From Promethearchaeota archaeon (GTDB lineage Archaea; Asgardarchaeota; Lokiarchaeia; Sigyniarchaeales; SOKP01), in NCBI GenBank assembly GCA_048939995.1, contig JBHLOY010000002.1:32001-96000 (forward strand): a stretch of 64,000 nucleotides of DNA, written 5' to 3'. The position numbers and the translations under genes were made by a program. The number at the start of each line of letters is the position of its first letter. The first letter of the stretch is position 1. The notes under the pieces were generated by a model that had not been told where the DNA came from, ran no database searches, and worked only from the letters and a program-made list of their open reading frames with translations. Below, piece by piece: positions 31,577-48,340 of the stretch.

Positions 31577-32692
31577 CTAAATTTTAGCATAATTTTTTAT
31601 AAAAGCTTCTAATAAACGAACTGTATTTAAAATATCATCTAATTTTAAAAGAGATGTTGGAGAATGTATGTAGCGGCAAGGAACTGATACTACTGTGCTA
31701 GGTACACCTTCACGAGTAAGTTGAATTTTACCTGCATCTGTTTTTCCATACATAGGTTTCTTAAATTGAAACGGAATTTTTTCTAGTTTAGCATTTTCTA
31801 TAAGTCTTTTATTGACATGAGGCGAACAAATTATAGATTTATCTGCTACTGAAATTGCTGGACCTTTCCCAATATAAACGGGGATTCTTGATTCCTTTAT
31901 ATCTGGAACATCTCCAGCAGTAGTATTCTCTATAGCAATTGCCATAGTTGGCTTTAATTTATAGGCACCAGTCCTTGCTCCAATCCTCCCAAATTCTTCT
32001 TGTACAGCAAAATTAAATAGAAGTGTATCTTCAGTTATTTGTTCTTGTTTCAATTCTCTCATTAAATGTAAAAGAACATTACAACCCGTTCTATCGTCAA
32101 AAGCTTTACCCCGAACCATATTATTAGGAAAATCCTGAAAAGGATCAATCAAAGTACCGACTGAACCAATTTCAATTCCACCATTGATTACATCATCATA
32201 TGAATTCATTCCAATATCAATATACATACTAGAAGTGTCAGTAATTTTCTTTCTCTCACTAGGAGTTGTAAGGTGTGGAGGCTTCGATCCAATAATCCCA
32301 TGTAAAATTTTTCCAGAATTAGATTTTAAAATTATGGCTTGACCTAATAATATTCTAATATCCCAACCACCTACTAAAACAAATCTTAAGAATCCAGATT
32401 TTTCTATATGAGAAATCATAAATCCAATTTCATCAATATGAGCATCAAATAAAATTCTGTTCTTACCTTCTTTCCCTTCCTTGATGGCAAGTATGTTTCC
32501 AAGAGGATCTTTCCAAATCTTATCAGCCAATTGTTCATTTTCAATTTTAGTTAATATAAAGTCACTAACCTCATCTTCAAAGCCAGAAACACCAAATAAG
32601 GAGGATAATTGCTTCTGAAGATCTTTAATACTTTGTAAGTCCAAATTAAAACCACTATAAGAATCCTTTATAATATGTATTAGTTTGACCAA
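31577..32692 (-). CDS. M42 family aminopeptidase (TET-like)
   Basis: GVSGFE, AHIDEIG, KAFDDR, VQEE, TDAG, RYIHSP. Confidence 0.92.
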   Translation of the reverse strand: MVKLIHIIKDSYSGFNLDLQSIKDLQKQLSSLFGVSGFEDEVSDFILTKIENEQLADKIWKDPLGNILAIKEGKEGKNRILFDAHIDEIGFMISHIEKSGFLRFVLVGGWDIRILLGQAIILKSNSGKILHGIIGSKPPHLTTPSERKKITDTSSMYIDIGMNSYDDVINGGIEIGSVGTLIDPFQDFPNNMVRGKAFDDRTGCNVLLHLMRELKQEQITEDTLLFNFAVQEEFGRIGARTGAYKLKPTMAIAIENTTAGDVPDIKESRIPVYIGKGPAISVADKSIICSPHVNKRLIENAKLEKIPFQFKKPMYGKTDAGKIQLTREGVPSTVVSVPCRYIHSPTSLLKLDDILNTVRLLEAFIKNYAKI

Positions 32693-38394: not shown

Positions 38395-39615
38395 ATGGTT
38401 GATATTGAAAAGATAATTCTTAATAAAATAGATGAGACAAAGGATGAATTAGTTCAATTTCTTCAAGAACTTGTTCAATACCATTCAGAGGTTCCACCGG
38501 GTAAATATCGAGAACTATCTAAATTTATTGCAACAAAAATGGAAAAATTTGGCATAAAAACCCAAGTAAAAAGAAATAATGTAATTGGGGAATTGGGAGC
38601 TGAAAAAGGCCCTACCTTGATATTTAATGCTCACTATGATACTGTTACTACTCATGATGGATGGACTAAAATCCCTCATTCTGGTGAATTAATTGGCAAC
38701 AAATTATATGGTCGAGGTTCTGCTGATGACAAATCATGCATAGCCGCTGAAATATTTGCTGCAAAAGCTCTTTTGGATATGAATGTTGATCTAAAAGGGA
38801 AGTTAATAGTTACTGCTGTTGTTAATGAGGAAATTGGAGGTATAGGAGGAGCTGAATATCTTGTTAATGAAGGCATAGTCAAAGGAGATGCTTGTTTATT
38901 AGGAGATGGACCAGCTGACTATCCAATAATATATCGTGGAGGGGTACTTCAAATTAGTTTTAAAACTAAAGGTATTCGACGTCATGCTATGGCTTACCCT
39001 GATACAATCCCTAAATATCGCAATGAATATTCTGGAATAAATGCAGTACATAGAATGATCCCTATCATGAATTTTCTCATGGATTTACAAGAAGAGTTTA
39101 ATAAACAAGAAACCAAGTATTCTGTTCCTCCTGATTTACCAAAAAAAGTAAGCAGTATTGAAATAACAAAAATGGAAGGAGGAAATGCAATCGATACAGT
39201 AGCAGATAGTTGTACTTTACATTGTATGATGAATTTTATACCTGAACAAGATATTAATCATATTCGGACAAGGATTTTTAATTTCATAGAAGAATTGAAA
39301 AAAAATGATGCAAATCTAGATATTTCGGTCCAAAATCCCGTCTCAATCCCACCAAAAATAGGAGATCCTAACTCTACTATAGCTAGAGTTGTTAAGAATG
39401 CTTTTAAAAAAGTCCATAGTGAAGAACGAGATTTTAAAAGTTTTATCCCAACTACAGATGCTCATCTCTTTCAAATGAAGGGAATTGAAACTATTATAAT
39501 CGGGACTCTGCGAGGAGATAATAACTACCACGCCCAAGATGAGTTTGTTTATATTGAGGATGTGATAAATGCCGCAAAAGTTTATGCTTTGACTGCTTTG
39601 AATTATCTTACATGA
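38395..39615 (+). CDS. M20 metallopeptidase (ArgE/DapE family)
   Basis: NAHYDTV, GRGSADDK, EEIGG, TDA, H..DE. Confidence 0.9.
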   Translation: MVDIEKIILNKIDETKDELVQFLQELVQYHSEVPPGKYRELSKFIATKMEKFGIKTQVKRNNVIGELGAEKGPTLIFNAHYDTVTTHDGWTKIPHSGELIGNKLYGRGSADDKSCIAAEIFAAKALLDMNVDLKGKLIVTAVVNEEIGGIGGAEYLVNEGIVKGDACLLGDGPADYPIIYRGGVLQISFKTKGIRRHAMAYPDTIPKYRNEYSGINAVHRMIPIMNFLMDLQEEFNKQETKYSVPPDLPKKVSSIEITKMEGGNAIDTVADSCTLHCMMNFIPEQDINHIRTRIFNFIEELKKNDANLDISVQNPVSIPPKIGDPNSTIARVVKNAFKKVHSEERDFKSFIPTTDAHLFQMKGIETIIIGTLRGDNNYHAQDEFVYIEDVINAAKVYALTALNYLT

Positions 39616-39705
39616 CTATTTTAAAGATAATCGAAAAGGCATAACTACAAATTTTTAGAAATATAAACTAAATGGTAAAAAAAGTATGTAAAAAATAGAA
39701 TTTAT

Positions 39706-40467
39706 TTATGCTTCTTCTTCTTTCCCCATTAAACGCATGACCGCATCCGCAAGTTTGTTTTGACTGCGGCTCATGATCCCTTTTACCTTACCTTCTACAC
39801 CAGTCACTCGGAGCATGATTCCATTCCAAACTGAACTAGGTTCTCCTTTTACATTCTTAAATCGATCCCGATGAACTTCAACTTCGATATTTTCATATTT
39901 GTTTGATGCATCAGAACATTTGAAACATAGAATGCATTTATCTACATCGACTTTAACTTCTTTGCCTTCTCGAGACATTGCATCAACTGAACATTCTTCT
40001 GTAAATTGATCAATAATAGTTGTATCTTTTTCATTACAAGTAATTTTTATTGAACCTTCTACTACTTTTCGTACTTTTCTTCCATCATCTAACGTCCGAA
40101 CTTCTTCGTCAAATTCTGGAAGAGAACCATTTTCAACTAACAATATTTTGTTTTCTCCATTAACTAATAACTCTAATGTATATCCCGGGCAAATCCAACT
40201 GCAGCTACCGCACCAAATACATTTTTCTGTATCAACAACGATCTTTTTATTAGATTCTATTTTCATTTCCTCAGGGGTTCCAATAGCTGTCTTTTTCAAT
40301 GGTTCATCGTATATAGAAATAGTAACCGGACAAACACGATGGCAAAATCCGCACTCGATACATTTTGATTCATCATATTTTAAGATCATTTCATGGTTGA
40401 GCATCTTGTAAACATAATGGGTAATATTTTCATCTACTTGTATCGTTTTCTTAGCTGGTAATGAAAT
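39706..40467 (-). CDS. Multi-[4Fe-4S] polyferredoxin (FwdF-like), probably starting at ATT
   Basis: CIECGFC..VCP, CIWCGSC..ICP, CILCFKC; frame extends to ATT 40465-67 (xSLPAKK) after AGGATGTGA. Confidence 0.8.
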   Translation of the reverse strand: MSLPAKKTIQVDENITHYVYKMLNHEMILKYDESKCIECGFCHRVCPVTISIYDEPLKKTAIGTPEEMKIESNKKIVVDTEKCIWCGSCSWICPGYTLELLVNGENKILLVENGSLPEFDEEVRTLDDGRKVRKVVEGSIKITCNEKDTTIIDQFTEECSVDAMSREGKEVKVDVDKCILCFKCSDASNKYENIEVEVHRDRFKNVKGEPSSVWNGIMLRVTGVEGKVKGIMSRSQNKLADAVMRLMGKEEEA

Positions 40468-40523
40468 AATAATTTCACATCCTTTTCTATTAATTTTTCT
40501 TTTTTTTTTAATTTAGTAATAAT

Positions 40524-41663
40524 TTATGTTCTTTCTAATTCCATTTGTTCAATTGCCTTACCAGATCTGAAAGGTATGTCTTCCAAATTTTCTCCTGCGG
40601 TGTATCCGAATTCGTCTTTAAATGCTTCATTTAATGACTGAAAGTATAGAGACAAGGGGAGGTGTTGAGGGCAGTTATTATCACAATTTCCACATTCTAC
40701 GCATCTATCTGCAACATGAGCAATGCGTGTCAATTGATAAGTCTCTTTATTTATAACTTTATCTTTTCTCTTTTTTTGTAATATGCAATCAACGCAATAA
40801 CAAACTGGACATCCACGAATACACATCCCACACATAGTACATGCTTGAAGTTTTGCGATTTTCTCTTCTTGGGGGAGTTTATCCCATTCTTCTAAATCTT
40901 TCGCCCTTTTAGTCAATGCGTTTTCCTTCAGTTCTTTAACTTTATTAATGTGAGCTTTCTTAATATCAGCTGGAATCGTTTTTTTTTCAATTTTAGATGT
41001 TTCAATAAGTTCAGCTCCTTTATCAGAATATGCTTTTAGAATAATCTCATCAGAGTCAATAGATATACCAAGATCACTTATACCTATATCAGCTACAACG
41101 GGGATTTTTCTAGTACAGCGTGAACAATTATCAGCGATATCTAAATCAACCTCTTTCGTTGTTCCATCTGATAATTTAAGAATTAAACCTTTTTCTCCAA
41201 TTTTTTCTTTAATAACTTGAGTAGGATCTATGTCCTTAAATTTTTTTAGTTCCCGAGAAGCATTTATAACCATTCCTCTATCTTCAAACGCGATGATAAA
41301 GAGATTCTCTAAATTAATTTGCTTAATCTTAGCCAGCTCTATTATAGCTCTGGTATCACATGGTCGAGCAATAAGCGCTACTTTCTCTTGGAGTGCTCCA
41401 TTTACAGATTTATGCAAAAATTTAGCAGCGGAATCAGTCCTAGCATACCCATAAGAAATAAGATTTGTTAATGGGAAACTCTTAATATCTTCCGGTTTTT
41501 CATAGATGTTTGGAGATACTGTGAAACGATCTTCCTGATTAGTTTTTTTATCAATCCTAGTTTCAGCACCAATGATTTTGTTGACAACTTTCTCCTTTAG
41601 TAAACTAACTAGTATTTTTGGAAAGTCTTCAATTTTTATTAGATATTCTGCTATTGCATCCAT
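40524..41663 (-). CDS. FdhB/FrhB-like (F420-dependent dehydrogenase beta) Fe-S flavoprotein subunit
   Basis: RPCD.RA..EL.K..QI, NC.RC....P..AD, CTMCGMC..GCP.CYC..C, CVECGNC...CP. Confidence 0.85.
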   Translation of the reverse strand: MDAIAEYLIKIEDFPKILVSLLKEKVVNKIIGAETRIDKKTNQEDRFTVSPNIYEKPEDIKSFPLTNLISYGYARTDSAAKFLHKSVNGALQEKVALIARPCDTRAIIELAKIKQINLENLFIIAFEDRGMVINASRELKKFKDIDPTQVIKEKIGEKGLILKLSDGTTKEVDLDIADNCSRCTRKIPVVADIGISDLGISIDSDEIILKAYSDKGAELIETSKIEKKTIPADIKKAHINKVKELKENALTKRAKDLEEWDKLPQEEKIAKLQACTMCGMCIRGCPVCYCVDCILQKKRKDKVINKETYQLTRIAHVADRCVECGNCDNNCPQHLPLSLYFQSLNEAFKDEFGYTAGENLEDIPFRSGKAIEQMELERT

Positions 41664-41769
41664 AGTTTTTCCAACTCAAAATTAATTGTACAAGATTTTA
41701 ATATTACTATATTCCAGTGAAATTTTTTTCTATTTTTATTTAATTTTAAACTAAAAATTACAATTTTAT

Positions 41770-41842
41770 ATGTGTTTTATGGTGCTCCCATTTCCTCAGC
41801 TAAGTTCTCATTTTTATAACTCAGCGTCATTAGCTAACACAT
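41770..41842 (-). promoter_or_regulatory. Eukaryote-type SECIS element in the 3' UTR of hdrA-mvhD
   Basis: Minus strand AUGAC-GCUGAGUU-AUAAAAAUGAG-AACUUAGC-UGAG: UGAN/NGAN core, 8-bp stem, A-rich apical loop, flanked by AUGUGUU/AACACAU. Confidence 0.85.
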
Positions 41843-41848
41843 TATTTT

Positions 41849-42310
41849 TTAAGCCTTTGCTTTTTCTTTGGCTTTGGCTTTCTCTTGCGCGCCACCTTTT
41901 ACACGTAAAGGACTAGGTCCAAGTTCACGAATAACTTTATCAAACTCAATAGCCGCATTTTGAAACTTCTGACCCTCAGCTGCACTACAATATCCAAACA
42001 TTATTCGCTTTTCATTAAGCCCTAATGTCTTCACAACAGCTTTTATGTACTCAAATTCGCGAAATGCAAAATAATTGCCAGTTTCATAATCACACTCATG
42101 AGGATATCATCCAATTATCATTATACCGTCTGCTCCTCTTCCAAATGCCCTAGCAATAAGATCGCTATCAACCCGTCCTGTACATGGTACCAATATCGTT
42201 CTTAAAGAGGGTGGATATTGTGCTCTAATTGTTCCAGCCATATCGGCTGAACCATAACCTCATTTCCAACAAAGGAAGGCTATTATCTTTATATCTTCTT
42301 CTTCTGCCAT
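41849..42310 (-). CDS. mvhD: Hydrogenase iron-sulfur subunit MvhD/VhuD, selenoprotein (Sec17, Sec68)
   Basis: MAEEEDIKIIAFLCWKUGYGSAD...VPCTGRVD...GADG...GUYPHECDY..GN; TGA at 42260-62 and 42107-09; AGGTGG RBS. Confidence 0.92.
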
Positions 42311-42324
42311 TTTAATCCACCTCT

Positions 42325-44301
42325 CTACTCCTGGATTGGAAGTAATTCATCAATTAATGCCATGTATTGGTCATCTCTAAAGTAAGTTAATTCAATAGCT
42401 TTAGAAGGACATGTCGCTGCGCATGTTCCGCATCCTCTGCAGCGAATTAAATCTACAACGATATTCCCCTTTTCATTTATTGAAATTGCAGTATATGGAC
42501 AAGCTTCAATGCATTTATAACATTTTGCACATCTTTCATCTGAGGGAGTCGCTCGAATTAATTCCATAGTATATTCACCTTTACCCATTGGAATTGCGGC
42601 TGCTGATGCTGCACCTCTTGCTTGACTTACAGTCTTATCTATCTCTTTTTGTCCTTGGGCAGACCCACAAATGAAAATTCCAGGTACTTTTGTACTAATT
42701 GGATCAAGACGGGCATGATATTCTTTTAAAAACCCATCAGGACTTCTTTCCATATTTAATACTCTAGCAATTTCAATTGTTCCTTTTGACGGAAGTGAGG
42801 CAGGGGAAAGAACAACCATATGAAATTCCCCAGTCACTACAGTGTCAGTGCCTACAGGTTCCCACTGGGCTAGTAAATTCTTGGTCAATGGGTCCTCTTC
42901 GATTTTTCCAACAAGACCTTTGACAAAAATTATTCCTGCATCTCGCGATCTTCTGTAGTATTCTTCATAATCTTTACCTGCACATCTCATATCAATATAA
43001 GTGCATAGGATTTCTGAATCGGGATATTCAGATTTAATCAGCTTTGAATTTTTAAGAGATAAATTACAACAAACGACAGAACACCATGGATTTTTACTCA
43101 CGTCACGAGATCCAACGCAATTTATGAAAAGAATCTTAGTAGGACGCTTGCCATCAGAAGGACGTTTTAAATGACCGTAAGTTGGACCGTTAGGAGCTAA
43201 TATCCGCTCCAACTCAATCTGGTTAACAACATTTTCATATATGCCATAACCATAATCATCTCCTTCATAAAGATCCCAACCAGTAGCTACGACTATAGTT
43301 CCAATCTCAAGATCTAAAATTTCTTCTTGTTGAGAAAAATCAATTGCATCTTCTTCACAAGAATCGACACAGCTAAAACATTCAACACAAGACTCTCTAG
43401 CAATATCATATACGGCAGGTACGGCCTGCGCAAATGCGATGTCAATACATTTTCTGGCTGAAAGATTTTCATCGAAATAATTAGGTACATAAATGGGACA
43501 AACATCAACACAAGCTCCGCACCCAGTGCATTTAGTTTCAAGGACATAACGTTGATTTCTTTTCACTTTTACTTTGAAGTTTCCAATATATCCATCTACT
43601 TTAATTACTTCACTGTAGGTTAATATCTCGATGTTGGGATGCCTATTCGATTCTAACATTTTTGGACCGAGAATTCAGATTGAACAGTCATCTGTGGGAA
43701 ACGTACGATCTAATTGGGACATTCTCCCTCCAATTGTTGTATTCTTCTCAACTAAGTATACTTTACATCCTGCATTACCTAAATCTATAGCTGTTGATAG
43801 CCCAGCGATTCCTCCACCAACTACTAAAGCTGTCTTTTTTACAGGTACAGTCATAGTGGGAACGTCTTCTAATAATCTTGCTCTCGCCACCCCTGCCTTT
43901 ATTAATTCAATAGCTTTTTGGAGTGCTCTCTCACGAACTTCAGGTGATTGGTGAACAAAACTACAATGTTCTCTGATATTTACAAACTCTAAATATCTTG
44001 GTGGTAAACCTGCTTCAGAAAGTATTGCATGGAAAACTGGTTGATGAGTTTTAGGTGTACAAGCGGCTACAACAATACGTTCAAGCTTGCTTTCTTCTAT
44101 TTGTTCTTTAATATAAGTGGATCCTCCTTCAGTACACATACTTAGGTACTCAAACGCTTTTACTCCTTCTATTTTATTGAGTTCTTCTACGATTTTTGGG
44201 ATATCCAAGATACCAGCGATATTAATACCTCAGCGGCACACAAAAACGCCAACAATAGACTTTTTAGCTTCATTATTTTCTTTGGTCTGGTTTCCAGACA
44301 A
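42325..44301 (-). CDS. hdrA: Heterodisulfide reductase subunit A, selenoprotein (Sec24, Sec209), 658 aa
   Basis: TTG start; GVFVCRUGINIAG (TGA 44230-32); TFPTDDCSIUILGPKM (TGA 43675-77); GGGIAG, CVGSR, C..VCC and ferredoxin motifs, all in one frame. Confidence 0.93.
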
Positions 44302-44578
44302 TTTTTACACCTTTATTAATATATCCTCCTAATTTTTTAAGAGTATATTTAGTATATATGTTTTTATAATAGCATAAAAACTAAAATTTATGATATTGTT
44401 AATAGTCCTTCTTATTAAAATTACATTATTATTCCATTTCATCCACTAATTTAAAAGTTTAATAAAAATATTCTTTCTCTTTTACGACAAAAATTTAAAG
44501 CTTTCTTTTATCTTCAAAAAATAAGGTTATACAAAATGAGAAACTATAAAAATAAAAAGAAAATAAGTATTTGGAACT

Positions 44579-45136
44579 TTAACCTTGAGATTCAGCAATT
44601 ATGTCTCCAAATAATCGCTTTACAGCTTCAATACGAGTTTCTTCTCCTATTTGCTCAACATTTTTGAGTGAAATGGCTTCTTTTGGGCATACTGCTATGC
44701 ACTGAGGCTCTCTCACCCCGACTTCGGGATCAATAAATTCTTCTTTCATATTTTCACATAAATCGCAAACAAGAGCTTTCTGAGAAGAAATATGAAGAGA
44801 AATAACTCCGAAATCGCAAGCACGAATACAAAATCCGCATCCATTACACTTATCCTCCTCTACAATAATGGAACCTGTTTCTGGATCCTGCTCCAACGCT
44901 TTCTCCGGACAGCTACGAACGCAAGGAGAGTCTTCACATTTCTGGCATGCTAGCGCAATGTTAAAAATAGGTTCTATTCTTACTCGATGAATTCTAGTAT
45001 TAATGGGATTAAATTCTGCGTCATGCACAAAACTACACACGCTTTCACACGTCTCGCAGCCCGTACATAAGTTTGGATCTACGATGATAAATTGGTGCAT
45101 AACTCCTCCCCGCTTTTTAGTCTTAGCCTTTGACAT
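44579..45136 (-). CDS. 4Fe-4S dicluster electron-transfer subunit (AorA/DmsB-like)
   Basis: CTGC.TC..VC, CQKC...PC...CP, CNGCG.C..AC, CDLC...C...CP. Confidence 0.88.
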   Translation of the reverse strand: MSKAKTKKRGGVMHQFIIVDPNLCTGCETCESVCSFVHDAEFNPINTRIHRVRIEPIFNIALACQKCEDSPCVRSCPEKALEQDPETGSIIVEEDKCNGCGFCIRACDFGVISLHISSQKALVCDLCENMKEEFIDPEVGVREPQCIAVCPKEAISLKNVEQIGEETRIEAVKRLFGDIIAESQG

Positions 45137-45137
45137 G

Positions 45138-47078
45138 TTACCTCTTACCTCCTTTGGTTGCTGGTTTTAATTTTCCAATCACGAAATCTAACCCTAATTT
45201 TTTCAATGTTTCATCAGTAGGGATTCCTGTCTCTTTATCCCAACCCCGTGCTTCATAATATCCGCTTAATATTTTTTGATATCCATCTTCATTTAATGTA
45301 TACCCTTTGGCAGGACCTTTTGTATGGGCTTCCTTGAAAAATCGATCTGGAGGACGATCATCAGCTCGTGTCCAACCCTCTCTAATATTAAAGCATTTAG
45401 AAAGGTTTAAAATAGCTTCTCCTCGAAGCAAAATTGATTCCTCAGTATGTGGAATTCCAGTGACTAGTTCATATACTTTTGCCATTTCTGCATCAGATTC
45501 ATAGATCCCTCGTGTAAATTTACAGATTATATATGAATCAATAAGCGCATAAACATCCTCAAGTTTTTTGATTGCTTTTCCCCGTTCGAGTGGTTTATCA
45601 TATCCAAATCTATCAAATGTACCTTTTGCATCAAGCCCATAAGCTCCATTGCGTAAATGGCACGCTCCTCGAATAGATACACTCATTCCCACCGCAAATG
45701 AAGTCATGCCATGGACATCAAAGGCAGGGAGTTCTAGCCCTTTAACATGCATAGCATAGTAGCTCGCATTTTTTCTACCCATTTCTTCTAATCGTTTACC
45801 AGCTTCTCTAACACCATCACCAAAAATTTCTCCTGCAAAACCCTTTCCAAGGATCATTTCTTCTGTAAACCTTACAAGATTCACAGTCGAGCCAAAAGGT
45901 AGCTTATATCCTAAATCTTTTTCTGTGATCACACCTTCCTCGAAGCATTCACACGCCATTGCTGCCGTTGCACCACCAGAAATCGCATCGATTCCCAGAT
46001 CATCACACAAGGTTACACATTTAAATACACTTGGCCAATCAGAATTACCACAGGCAGTCCCAAAACCGTAACATAATTCTTGATCTATACTTGCATAAGT
46101 ATTTGGCCAATTTGGATGGGATTTTGGTACTTTTGTAATGTGGTCACATGCAATTGAGCATTGAGAGCAAGCCACTTTTTTGACAACCCAATCTTGATTA
46201 AGTGTATCTCCCGAAAAAGTTCCATCGTCAATCTTATCCCATGTACCTTCTTTGTGGTTGAATATTGGCATCATACCTAGTTTATTATAACTAGTTAAAC
46301 CAGAAGGTGTGCCCAGATCTCTATATTTAGCTGTAGCAGGACCATTTGCAACTTTGATTAATTTTTTTGCTAGTTTATAAAATTCAGCAGGATTTGCAAC
46401 TTTGGTTCCCTTAGTACCTCTAAAACAGACAGCTTTTAAATTTTTAGAGCCCATAACTGCCCCCATACCAGTACGACCAGCTTGCCTATTGCGATCATTG
46501 GTTAAACATGCCATATGGCTCATACGTTCTCCAGCTTGACCAATAGCCATCACTGCAAGTCTATGATCTTGAAATTCTTTCCTTAGAAGCTCCTCGGTTT
46601 CCCAACAACCCTTGCCCCAAACTGTATTTTTGCATGGTACTAAATAATAGTCATCATCATCCACAACCATATAAACAGGTTCAGGAGATTTACCTTTGAA
46701 CACGATCATGTTGATTCCTGCTCTACGGGCTTGAGCTCCTACAGAACCTGATGAGATTGCCATACCAAACATTCCTGTTAATGGTGATTTAGCAAAAACA
46801 CCGTATTTAGAACTAGTTGGTAATATGGTCGTTGGAAAAGGTCCGTGACAATAAACAAAGACATTATCTGGGCTAAGAGGATCAATACCTGGCTTAAGTT
46901 CATCCCAAAGTACCTTTGCACCAAATCCATAACCCCCAATCCAATCTCTACAGAATTCTCTAGATAGTTCCGATTTTTCAATTTTACCATTGGTAAGATC
47001 AACATCAAGCCTTGTTTGGGTATACCCTTTTACATCATCGGGTACAGCTACTTCCTTAGCTTTACTCATGTTTTTCAC
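45138..47078 (-). CDS. aor: Tungsten aldehyde:ferredoxin oxidoreductase family protein
   Basis: KSPLTG, AGRTGMGAVMGSKNLKA, C..C.I.C, D.LG.D.IS, RGACH, YY..RGWD. Confidence 0.92.
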   Translation of the reverse strand: MKNMSKAKEVAVPDDVKGYTQTRLDVDLTNGKIEKSELSREFCRDWIGGYGFGAKVLWDELKPGIDPLSPDNVFVYCHGPFPTTILPTSSKYGVFAKSPLTGMFGMAISSGSVGAQARRAGINMIVFKGKSPEPVYMVVDDDDYYLVPCKNTVWGKGCWETEELLRKEFQDHRLAVMAIGQAGERMSHMACLTNDRNRQAGRTGMGAVMGSKNLKAVCFRGTKGTKVANPAEFYKLAKKLIKVANGPATAKYRDLGTPSGLTSYNKLGMMPIFNHKEGTWDKIDDGTFSGDTLNQDWVVKKVACSQCSIACDHITKVPKSHPNWPNTYASIDQELCYGFGTACGNSDWPSVFKCVTLCDDLGIDAISGGATAAMACECFEEGVITEKDLGYKLPFGSTVNLVRFTEEMILGKGFAGEIFGDGVREAGKRLEEMGRKNASYYAMHVKGLELPAFDVHGMTSFAVGMSVSIRGACHLRNGAYGLDAKGTFDRFGYDKPLERGKAIKKLEDVYALIDSYIICKFTRGIYESDAEMAKVYELVTGIPHTEESILLRGEAILNLSKCFNIREGWTRADDRPPDRFFKEAHTKGPAKGYTLNEDGYQKILSGYYEARGWDKETGIPTDETLKKLGLDFVIGKLKPATKGGKR

Positions 47079-47443
47079 TAATTTTTAATTTATAATATGA
47101 AATTAAACAATTTAATATAGAGAACAACTCTTTATTAGGTTAATTGTTAGATTCCTATAACTAATTTCTTTAAATTTTCATATTTTTAAATTTTTTTTAT
47201 GATTGATTTTGTGTTAACTTCTCTGAATATAGAAATTTTTTGTTCATTATGTTCTAATTCATAAAATTGAATAAGAAAATAGGAATTATGATTCGCTTTT
47301 TATAAAGGCTGAATAAAATTCGATTTTATAACATAATAGGTTAATTAAAAAAATATGATAGATTTTGTTTATCAAAGATAGAGTAATAAAACTTACTCTT
47401 TGAATATTATTCAGAGTAAACAAAAAAAAAGAACTGATTCAAA

Positions 47444-48340
47444 TTGCCCTATAAGATTTTAGGAAAAAAGGAGCTAGGTAACAGCGGATTGTTATATGAA
47501 ATGGTTTTAGATACTCCTTTAATTGCTAAAAAAGCATTTCCGGGAAATTTTATTCTCTTACGGATTAATGAAAATGGAGAACGCTTTCCATTAACAATAG
47601 CGGATTATGATGAAACAAAAGGAACAATAACAATTGTCTTTCAAATTGCTGGAAAAAGTACCAAGTTACTTTCACATCAAAATGTGGGAGATGAAATTCT
47701 TGATGTGGTTGGACCGTTAGGTAACAGAATTCATGCACAAAAATATAAATTTCCTGTTATAATCATTGGAGGTGGTGTTGGGATCGCTGAATGTTATCCT
47801 CAAGCAAAAGAATTAAAGAAAGCAGGAAATAAAATTATTTCTATTATTGGTGCAAGGAATACAGGATTACTTTTTTGGAGAGAAAAGATACGATCTGTAA
47901 GTGATCGCGTAATAATATGTACTGATGATGGAACTGAAGGGATTAAAGGCGTTGTAACCCAACCACTAAAAGAAATACTTTCAAGAGAAAGGATAAGCCT
48001 AGTAATCGCCATCGGTCCCTTAGTTATGATGAAGTATGTCGCGCGAGCTACTGATGGTTCTGGAGATTTGCCGAAGGTGAAAACTTCTGTTTCATTAAAT
48101 ACTATTATGATAGATGGAACAGGAATGTGTGGGGGATGTCGTTTTTCAACCTTAGAAGGAGATATTTATTTTGCATGCGTAGATGGACCCGATGTGGATG
48201 CACACGTAGTAGATTTTGATAATCTTATAAAGCGTTCCATGAGATTTGTTGAATTAGAAAAGCAAGCATTAGACAATTATGATCATGAATGTAAAGCATT
48301 AGGAAAATTGCAAAGTGAGGGACCTCAAAATGGAAAATAA
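47444..48340 (+). CDS. NfnA/SudB-type FAD/[2Fe-2S] subunit
   Basis: GER.PLTIAD, GPLG, GGGVG.A, IGP..MMK, M.DGTGMCGGCR...CVDGP. Confidence 0.92.
   Translation: MPYKILGKKELGNSGLLYEMVLDTPLIAKKAFPGNFILLRINENGERFPLTIADYDETKGTITIVFQIAGKSTKLLSHQNVGDEILDVVGPLGNRIHAQKYKFPVIIIGGGVGIAECYPQAKELKKAGNKIISIIGARNTGLLFWREKIRSVSDRVIICTDDGTEGIKGVVTQPLKEILSRERISLVIAIGPLVMMKYVARATDGSGDLPKVKTSVSLNTIMIDGTGMCGGCRFSTLEGDIYFACVDGPDVDAHVVDFDNLIKRSMRFVELEKQALDNYDHECKALGKLQSEGPQNGK

Follow-up and report, generated by a model that had tools for sequence, protein, structure and literature searches.

The closest described systems come from Asgard archaea. According to the main text of Mariotti et al. 2016 (PMC4989117), the HdrA-VhuD tandems of Lokiarchaeota have one selenocysteine insertion sequence (SECIS) in common, found only after VhuD. 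This lokiSECIS is described there as an AUGA, a 9-bp stem, an 11-nucleotide (nt) loop in which the first five nt are mostly A and the last G usually comes after an A, and then GA or AA. In the main text of Huang et al. 2024 (PMC11227280), hdrA and frhD are always adjacent in hundreds of Asgard genomes, and share one eukaryote-like SECIS (eSECIS-like) structure of 'type I'. A 2026 review restates this shared structure. Here we analyze a 64,000-nt stretch of a Promethearchaeota archaeon (Lokiarchaeia; Sigyniarchaeales), positions 32,001 to 96,000 of contig JBHLOY010000002.1. We call this whole stretch the window, and coordinates count from its first letter unless a contig is named. The genome is a metagenome-assembled genome (MAG) rated 98% complete, with 30% G+C. 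On the minus strand, the window carries the gene pair hdrA-mvhD (mvhD is also named vhuD), with four in-frame UGA codons and one lokiSECIS just after mvhD.

We consider it very probable that this selenocysteine (Sec) type pair is read from one bicistronic mRNA, and that its sole Sec signal is the lokiSECIS 6-83 nt after the mvhD stop. The shared-SECIS arrangement is real here, but it was already published in 2016 and broadened in 2024, so that this locus is a further example and not a discovery. The only point that is possibly new is that the element forms a conserved three-way junction with a lateral hairpin.

Four UGA codons in a conserved gene pair

The first gene, hdrA (44301..42325, minus strand), encodes a flavoprotein of the heterodisulfide-reductase subunit A type. 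With TGA read as U, its open reading frame (ORF) has 658 amino acids (aa), a TTG start and a UAG stop. The second gene, mvhD (42310..41849, minus strand), read in the same way, has 153 aa and a UAA stop. The HdrA protein shows the Fer4 and FAD/NAD-binding domains (Pfam) that are expected of HdrA, and it matches the solved HdrA chains 9sfi_A (E-value 3e-207) and 5odc_A along its entire length. MvhD is a member of the FlpD family (Pfam PF02662, E-value 1e-41), and also matches the solved MvhD chains 9sw2_D and 8rvu_F.

The UGA codons of hdrA are codon 24 (44232-44230), which in the structure alignment falls opposite a Cys of 9sfi_A, and codon 209 (43677-43675), the canonical HdrA Sec site, which falls opposite the X (Sec) of 9sfi_A in the motif TDDC..X.IL.PK. 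Those of mvhD are codons 17 (42262-42260) and 68 (42109-42107), both opposite Cys in 9sw2_D and in 8rvu_F. The genome also has about 12 Cys-type hdrA/mvhD paralogues, and every one of them has Cys at the corresponding columns. The initial annotation had placed in-frame TGAs at these four codons, all at conserved Cys positions, and the structure and paralogue alignments bear it out. Among 81 genomes belonging to the same order, we found 30 orthologous loci, each with two TGAs in mvhD. At the three UGAs that could be tested (hdrA 209, mvhD 17 and mvhD 68), TGA is kept in all 30. The TTG start of hdrA and its AAGGTG Shine-Dalgarno motif are kept in 10 of 10 orthologues.

Could the hdrA UGAs be genuine stops, of a broken gene or of a 23-residue peptide, or else be passed by near-cognate Cys or Trp readthrough without selenium? 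TGA is a normal stop in this genome. We nevertheless regard this as very improbable. The frame is open and conserved over 658 codons and retains the structural match to HdrA, its UGAs fall at Cys/Sec columns only, and TGA-209 persists in every orthologue while synonymous sites vary at about 48%. Moreover, next to the many Cys-type paralogues, the same genome has three more Sec-type pairs, on contigs C26 (3+2 UGAs), C8 (2+2) and C21 (2+2), and a complete Sec machinery in which the tRNA-Sec is a candidate. The four UGAs are almost certainly read as selenocysteine.

The two genes are separated by a spacer of 14 nt (42324..42311, minus strand), the same gap that had been annotated initially, and it carries the Shine-Dalgarno-like AGAGGTGG. 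Across the 30 orthologous loci, the spacer has 10-17 nt, nearly always starts with AGAGGT and has no T-run, and the hdrA stop codon is UAA in 22 loci, UAG in 8, and UGA in none. The length of the spacer, its AGAGGT start, and a hdrA stop that is never UGA all fit an mRNA spanning both genes. Alternatively, hdrA and mvhD could be transcribed separately, with the SECIS acting on the hdrA mRNA in trans. Nothing direct favors this, although at 30% G+C an internal promoter inside hdrA is conceivable from the sequence. Against it, the spacer holds only a Shine-Dalgarno motif in 30 of 30 loci, and hdrA is followed by neither a terminator-like feature nor a second SECIS. To our knowledge, a trans-acting SECIS is not an established mechanism in any domain. 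We give separate transcripts hardly any credence, and take the bicistronic mRNA as the preferred reading.

A single lokiSECIS and its three-way junction

The whole element has 77 nt (41844..41768, minus strand) and consists of three helices. Helix I begins 6 nt past the mvhD stop codon (41851-41849), and its 5′ strand AUGUGUU (41842-41836) forms 7 pairs with the 3′ strand AACACAU (41776-41770). Five unpaired nt separate the 5′ strand from the AUGA of the SECIS core (41830-41827), which stands 18 nt after the mvhD stop. Helix II and its 11-nt apical loop AUAAAAAUGAG follow (41826-41798); the helix has 9 positions, with 8 standard pairs and a C-U at the base. Then comes the GA of the core (41797-41796), partner of the GA in AUGA, and four unpaired nt, GGAA. 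The lateral hairpin AUGG-GAGCA-CCAU (41791-41779), of 4 pairs, lies in the 3′ strand of the internal loop, and two unpaired nt connect it to the 3′ strand of helix I. The AUGA is 2402 nt downstream of hdrA UGA-24, 1847 nt downstream of UGA-209, and 432 and 279 nt downstream of mvhD UGA-17 and UGA-68.

Every trait of the 2016 description is present: the AUGA before the stem, a stem of 9 positions, an 11-nt loop with an A-rich start (A at 4 of the first 5 positions) and AG at its end, a GA after the stem, and a position close behind the coding sequence, only after VhuD in the tandem. The minimum free energy (MFE) fold of the sequence has the same three-helix shape, at -17.1 kcal/mol (z = -3.75), and none of 200 shuffled sequences folds as well.

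The element can be aligned in 29 of the 30 orthologous loci. The AUGA is invariant in all 29, as are the GA of the core and the AG columns of the loop, and the helix II pair adjoining the core is non-standard in 16 of the 29. In helix II, 8 of 9 pairs change on both sides, both in these 29 orthologues and in a set of 79. The helix II stem is far beyond chance, because 8 of its 9 pairs covary in the 29 orthologues. RNAalifold, run de novo on a MAFFT alignment that was fitted to no model, returns the same three helices.

Within the orthologue group, helix II covaries freely, the stem of the lateral hairpin is invariant, and helix I is nearly so, with its pairs kept in 96% of cells among the 79 orthologues. 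Covariation in the latter two appears at larger divergence. Across paralogues and other selenoprotein families, 4 of 4 pairs of the lateral hairpin covary, with 98.6% of cells paired, and among diverse lokiSECIS elements 7 of 7 pairs of helix I covary. Taking 23 diverse elements together, each of the 20 pairs in the three helices varies on both sides, and 93.7% of cells are paired vs. about 40% when the partners are slid; this alignment was fitted to a covariance model (R2, below), which favors structure. The same three-way junction is found in every lokiSECIS that we inspected, that is, in the ten of this genome and in those from other genera and families of the order, and it spans five selenoprotein families. 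The lateral hairpin has 4-6 bp across elements, its loop usually contains GCA or GCG, and together with helix I it flanks the core. That helix I and the lateral hairpin are nearly invariant among orthologues hints at sequence-specific recognition.

Is this the only signal? A first covariance model (R1), trained on the orthologues only, was tied too closely to their sequence and failed to pick up the paralogous SECIS elements of the genome. For that reason we built R2, a general lokiSECIS model, from the 23 diverse elements (paralogous hdrA-mvhD pairs, PrxL, VhuU and others). Genome-wide, R2 finds ten elements, two of them outside its training set. In the 8.5 kb from 39000 to 47500, searched with filters off, it reports only the element after mvhD, at 74.4 bits (E-value 1.6e-16), and the next best score is 10.1 bits. 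There is exactly one match per locus, at the same place, in the 30 orthologous loci and in 80 of 80 further loci, which come from public Promethearchaeota/Promethearchaeia MAGs, including Loki_b32. Thus the claim of a sole SECIS-like hairpin just after mvhD, about 2.4 kb from the first UGA, stands.

Neither R2 without filters nor the pattern scans find a second SECIS, whether in hdrA itself, the 14-nt spacer or the 5′ region, and in nine orthologous hdrA 5′ regions there is no R2 match of 11 bits or more. The additional elements in or upstream of hdrA that would have spoken against a shared SECIS did not turn up in any of these searches. The methanogen-type eaSECIS (a GAA bulge opposite a single A, between GC-rich stems) gives 0 pattern matches on the sense strand from 44560 to 41664. 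Rfam reports no SECIS family at the gathering score, and none at E ≤ 10 in 41500-44500; since Rfam is without a lokiSECIS family, this says nothing against the element.

A relaxed pattern scan picked out one weak, AU-rich hairpin with an AUGA, at 44442 (141 nt before hdrA). We rejected it: only 2 of 10 orthologues have this AUGA, R2 gives it no score, and it lies at or before a conserved promoter-like block. A local element of bacterial type, or a selenocysteine redefinition element (SRE), directly after the UGAs was ruled out as well, because synonymous diversity does not dip there. Over the nine codons after UGA-209, UGA-17 and UGA-68 it is 0.51, 0.44 and 0.41, and the gene means are 0.48 (hdrA) and 0.44 (mvhD).

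These results bear on the possibility that the SECIS after mvhD serves the mvhD UGAs only, and that those of hdrA are recoded by another, undetected signal (an RNA of a different class, within hdrA or its 5′ UTR) or by insertion that their context drives without any SECIS. Our models find only what resembles known lokiSECIS elements, a SECIS in the 5′ untranslated region (UTR) is documented for methanococcal fdhA1, and the 44442 hairpin might be put forward as a candidate. Yet that hairpin fails on conservation and on R2 score, the 5′ regions of nine orthologues are likewise empty, the eaSECIS and Rfam searches return nothing, the codons after UGA-209 are as variable as the gene average, and the RNAz scans of Mariotti et al. 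2016 (PMC4989117), as given in the main text, also found nothing else. We judge a separate signal for hdrA unlikely, though less so than separate transcripts or genuine stops, and prefer the single shared element.

Selenocysteine machinery, mechanism and further candidates

A shared SECIS calls for Sec machinery, whose presence had been proposed as a check of the initial annotation, and the genome has it. SepSecS is present at 482 bits, above the curated cut-off, as is a full-length kinase of the PSTK/KTI12 family, an EFSec candidate with the archaeal SelB domain III (aSelB_III), and a SelD that itself has one in-frame TGA. For tRNA-Sec we have a candidate. No tRNA-Sec is called genome-wide by ARAGORN or RF01852, but a 26.7-bit match to RF01852 lies 79 nt upstream of SepSecS, outside the window (contig C23:113475-113631, plus strand), about 4 kb from EFSec, which is on the opposite strand. 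By eye, the candidate has a 9-bp acceptor stem GGCCCUAGA/UCGAGGGCC, a G discriminator, an encoded CCA, a UCA anticodon, a long variable arm and a 4-bp T stem, with insertions in the D loop and the T loop. When two introns are removed on trial, ARAGORN recognizes a tRNA-SeC(tca) in 801 out of 4320 spliced versions, a result that is supportive and comes from a search over many variants. The main text of Mariotti et al. 2016 (PMC4989117) reports one T-loop intron for the Loki tRNA-Sec, whereas our candidate has two apparent introns, in the D loop and in the T loop. As a related observation, ARAGORN finds only 24 tRNA genes in the whole genome, many of them with introns, despite the 98% completeness rating; probably a good many are interrupted by non-canonical introns or missing from the assembly.

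A change of the genetic code was considered and ruled out: TGA terminates 16% of the open frames with 300 or more codons and is an ordinary stop, so the code is not reassigned.

How would a single element serve both genes? A functional HdrA requires that its UGAs be recoded, and as the sole signal comes after mvhD, an mRNA that yields this protein would have to span both genes. On this mRNA, the kink-turn-type AUGA/GA core with its 9-position stem and A-rich 11-nt loop, set in the three-way junction, would recruit the Sec-tRNA(Sec)-EFSec complex, directly or via a binding protein, by analogy with eukaryotic and methanococcal 3′-UTR SECIS. The complex would then pass to ribosomes that have paused at one or another of the four UGAs, which lie 279 to 2402 nt upstream and on both sides of the cistron boundary. 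The UAG stop of hdrA, never UGA in relatives, would preserve termination; the main text of Mariotti et al. 2016 (PMC4989117) explains the never-UGA HdrA stop in the same way: a codon that lies within reach of the SECIS must still terminate translation. Long-range recoding of several UGAs across a cistron boundary, as proposed initially, is thus supported by the sequence comparisons, from which we infer co-transcription, Sec insertion and action at a distance.

Several points weigh against this mechanism. The literature that we found holds no transcript, proteomic or selenium-labelling evidence for any lokiSECIS. In the only functional test that we found, a lokiarchaeal vhuU SECIS placed in Methanococcus maripaludis gave background activity, 21 vs. 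22 mU/mg in the control without SECIS (Peiter et al. 2025, PMC11881835). The predicted MFE of that test construct is -6.9 kcal/mol (supplement of the same paper), and the full junctions that we folded are mostly between -14 and -21 kcal/mol (-17.1 for the present element); on these folding energies, the construct was probably a bare hairpin without helix I and the lateral hairpin. In this genome, the tRNA-Sec is recognized only after the in-silico removal of two introns, with many trial splicings. Under coupled transcription and translation, the first ribosomes would arrive at UGA-24 long before the SECIS is made. Finally, ribosomes terminating at the mvhD stop would have to melt helix I, which begins 6 nt downstream.

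The surroundings of the pair are as follows. Upstream, a block of about 60 nt (44382-44443, minus strand), 80-140 nt before the hdrA start, reads ATAAYAAT..AATTTTAATAA..GACTATT.ACA.TATCATAA. It is kept in 10 of 10 orthologous loci while its flanks cannot be aligned, and is probably a TATA/BRE promoter with an operator site. Further upstream, at 44579-47078 (minus strand), are genes for a ferredoxin and an aldehyde:ferredoxin oxidoreductase. Downstream, on the same strand, are an FrhB-like Fe-S protein (40524..41663) and a polyferredoxin (39706..40404), together at 39706-41663 of the window. A T-run is located near 41753-41757, between the SECIS and the FrhB-like gene. The FrhB-like gene starts about 100-190 nt past the SECIS in the orthologues inspected by eye, and the SECIS may therefore be intercistronic within a longer operon.

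Other Sec-type candidates appeared elsewhere in the genome. Two paralogous ORFs of about 155 aa (contigs C16:9345-9806, plus strand, and C11:426810-426337, minus strand) have a tandem UGA-UGA, in the motifs ..HADUUADN.. and ..VGCUUEKV.., and each has its own lokiSECIS (61 and 60 bits). They have no Pfam match, and no published Asgard selenoprotein family corresponds to them. A 66-aa ORF (C36:9636-9836, plus strand) has one predicted membrane helix and the motif GGGGUIC, and its stop is the UGA inside the AUGA core of a lokiSECIS at C36:9818-9892 (38 bits with R2, outside the training set). From its sequence, it is possibly a small membrane selenoprotein. At C17:97616-97689 (plus strand), 1.6 kb past the right end of the window, a peroxiredoxin-like gene contains a single UGA (FFRGNWUNHC) and has a lokiSECIS of its own (45.6 bits). 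A further lokiSECIS, complete with its three-way junction (C17:215774-215844, plus strand, beyond the window; 36.8 bits, outside the training set), is preceded only by a short zinc-ribbon-like ORF that ends in ..FRFK-UGA-UAA. Here, either the protein ends in Sec, or the actual selenoprotein gene has escaped recognition.

Comparison with known systems

With respect to the published HdrA-VhuD tandems, nothing essential is different. The gene order, the strand, the very short spacer and the single element after vhuD are the same, and so are the Sec sites (in HdrA the canonical one near 200 and an N-terminal one, in VhuD two) and the HdrA stop, which is never UGA. The element has the same AUGA, 9-position stem, 11-nt loop with an A-rich start and an AG end, and GA. 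The numbers differ slightly: here there are 2+2 UGAs (published, up to 6) acting over 2.4 kb (published, about 2 kb). The initial statement that Lokiarchaeia use eukaryote-like SECIS elements agrees with the main texts of both the 2016 and the 2024 papers. As for the fold, those main texts describe a stem-loop with the core (PMC4989117), to which a lower stem and an internal loop were added in 2024 (PMC11227280). The lateral hairpin is absent from both main texts, figures and supplements apart, and a literature search for SECIS and 'three-way junction' returned nothing on Asgard archaea.

Eukaryotic SECIS elements (RF00031, SECIS_1) have in common with this one the 3′-UTR location, action over 0.2-5 kb, the AUGA...GA kink-turn core, unpaired A's in the apical loop, and a helix I below the internal loop. 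On the other hand, RF00031 does not match the present element even at E ≤ 10, helix II is shorter here, there is a hairpin in the 3′ side of the internal loop, and two cistrons are served, as opposed to the monocistronic mRNAs of eukaryotes. No SBP2 is known in Asgard archaea according to the main text of Mariotti et al. 2016 (PMC4989117), and archaeal SECIS elements in general have no known binding partner.

The SECIS of Methanococcales and Methanopyrus, with a GAA/A kink-turn-like motif, is also archaeal, also lies after the coding sequence, and also acts on upstream UGAs. The methanococcal vhuD element acts on a pair of UGAs spaced 50 codons from each other, and retains AUGA and GAC/AAC, which surround an additional stem. 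The differences are that the element described here has no GAA/A bulge or GC clamps, that each methanococcal gene has its own element, and that a lokiarchaeal element did not function in M. maripaludis.

Finally, the k-junction (Wang, Daldrop, Huang and Lilley 2014, PMC4005666) joins three helices around a k-turn that contains tandem G-A/A-G pairs, with its third helix on the non-bulged strand. In the lokiSECIS, a third helix comes after the GA of the non-bulged strand, ahead of helix I. The likeness is one of secondary-structure topology only, and the lokiSECIS has 3-6 unpaired nt between the GA and the third helix. We tentatively suggest, as a possibility that we would not call probable, that the Asgard SECIS is a k-junction-like three-way junction and not a simple kink-turn hairpin. 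The lateral hairpin and the sequence-conserved helix I would then be required recognition elements for a binding factor, and the extra arms would let one element serve UGAs 2.4 kb away in another cistron; this could also explain the background result in M. maripaludis. If there is importance left in this locus, it may lie in the three-way junction, and functional tests or searches for a binding factor should use the whole 77-nt element, in place of the hairpin by itself.

Among Sec systems, it is unusual for one RNA signal at the 3′ end to recode several UGAs that are spread over two cistrons and more than 2 kb. A shared 3′-end SECIS bears on the origin of the eukaryotic 3′-UTR mode from an archaeal one, a point made in 2016 and broadened in 2024, and to which this locus, with 2+2 UGAs, adds a clean and well-conserved example.

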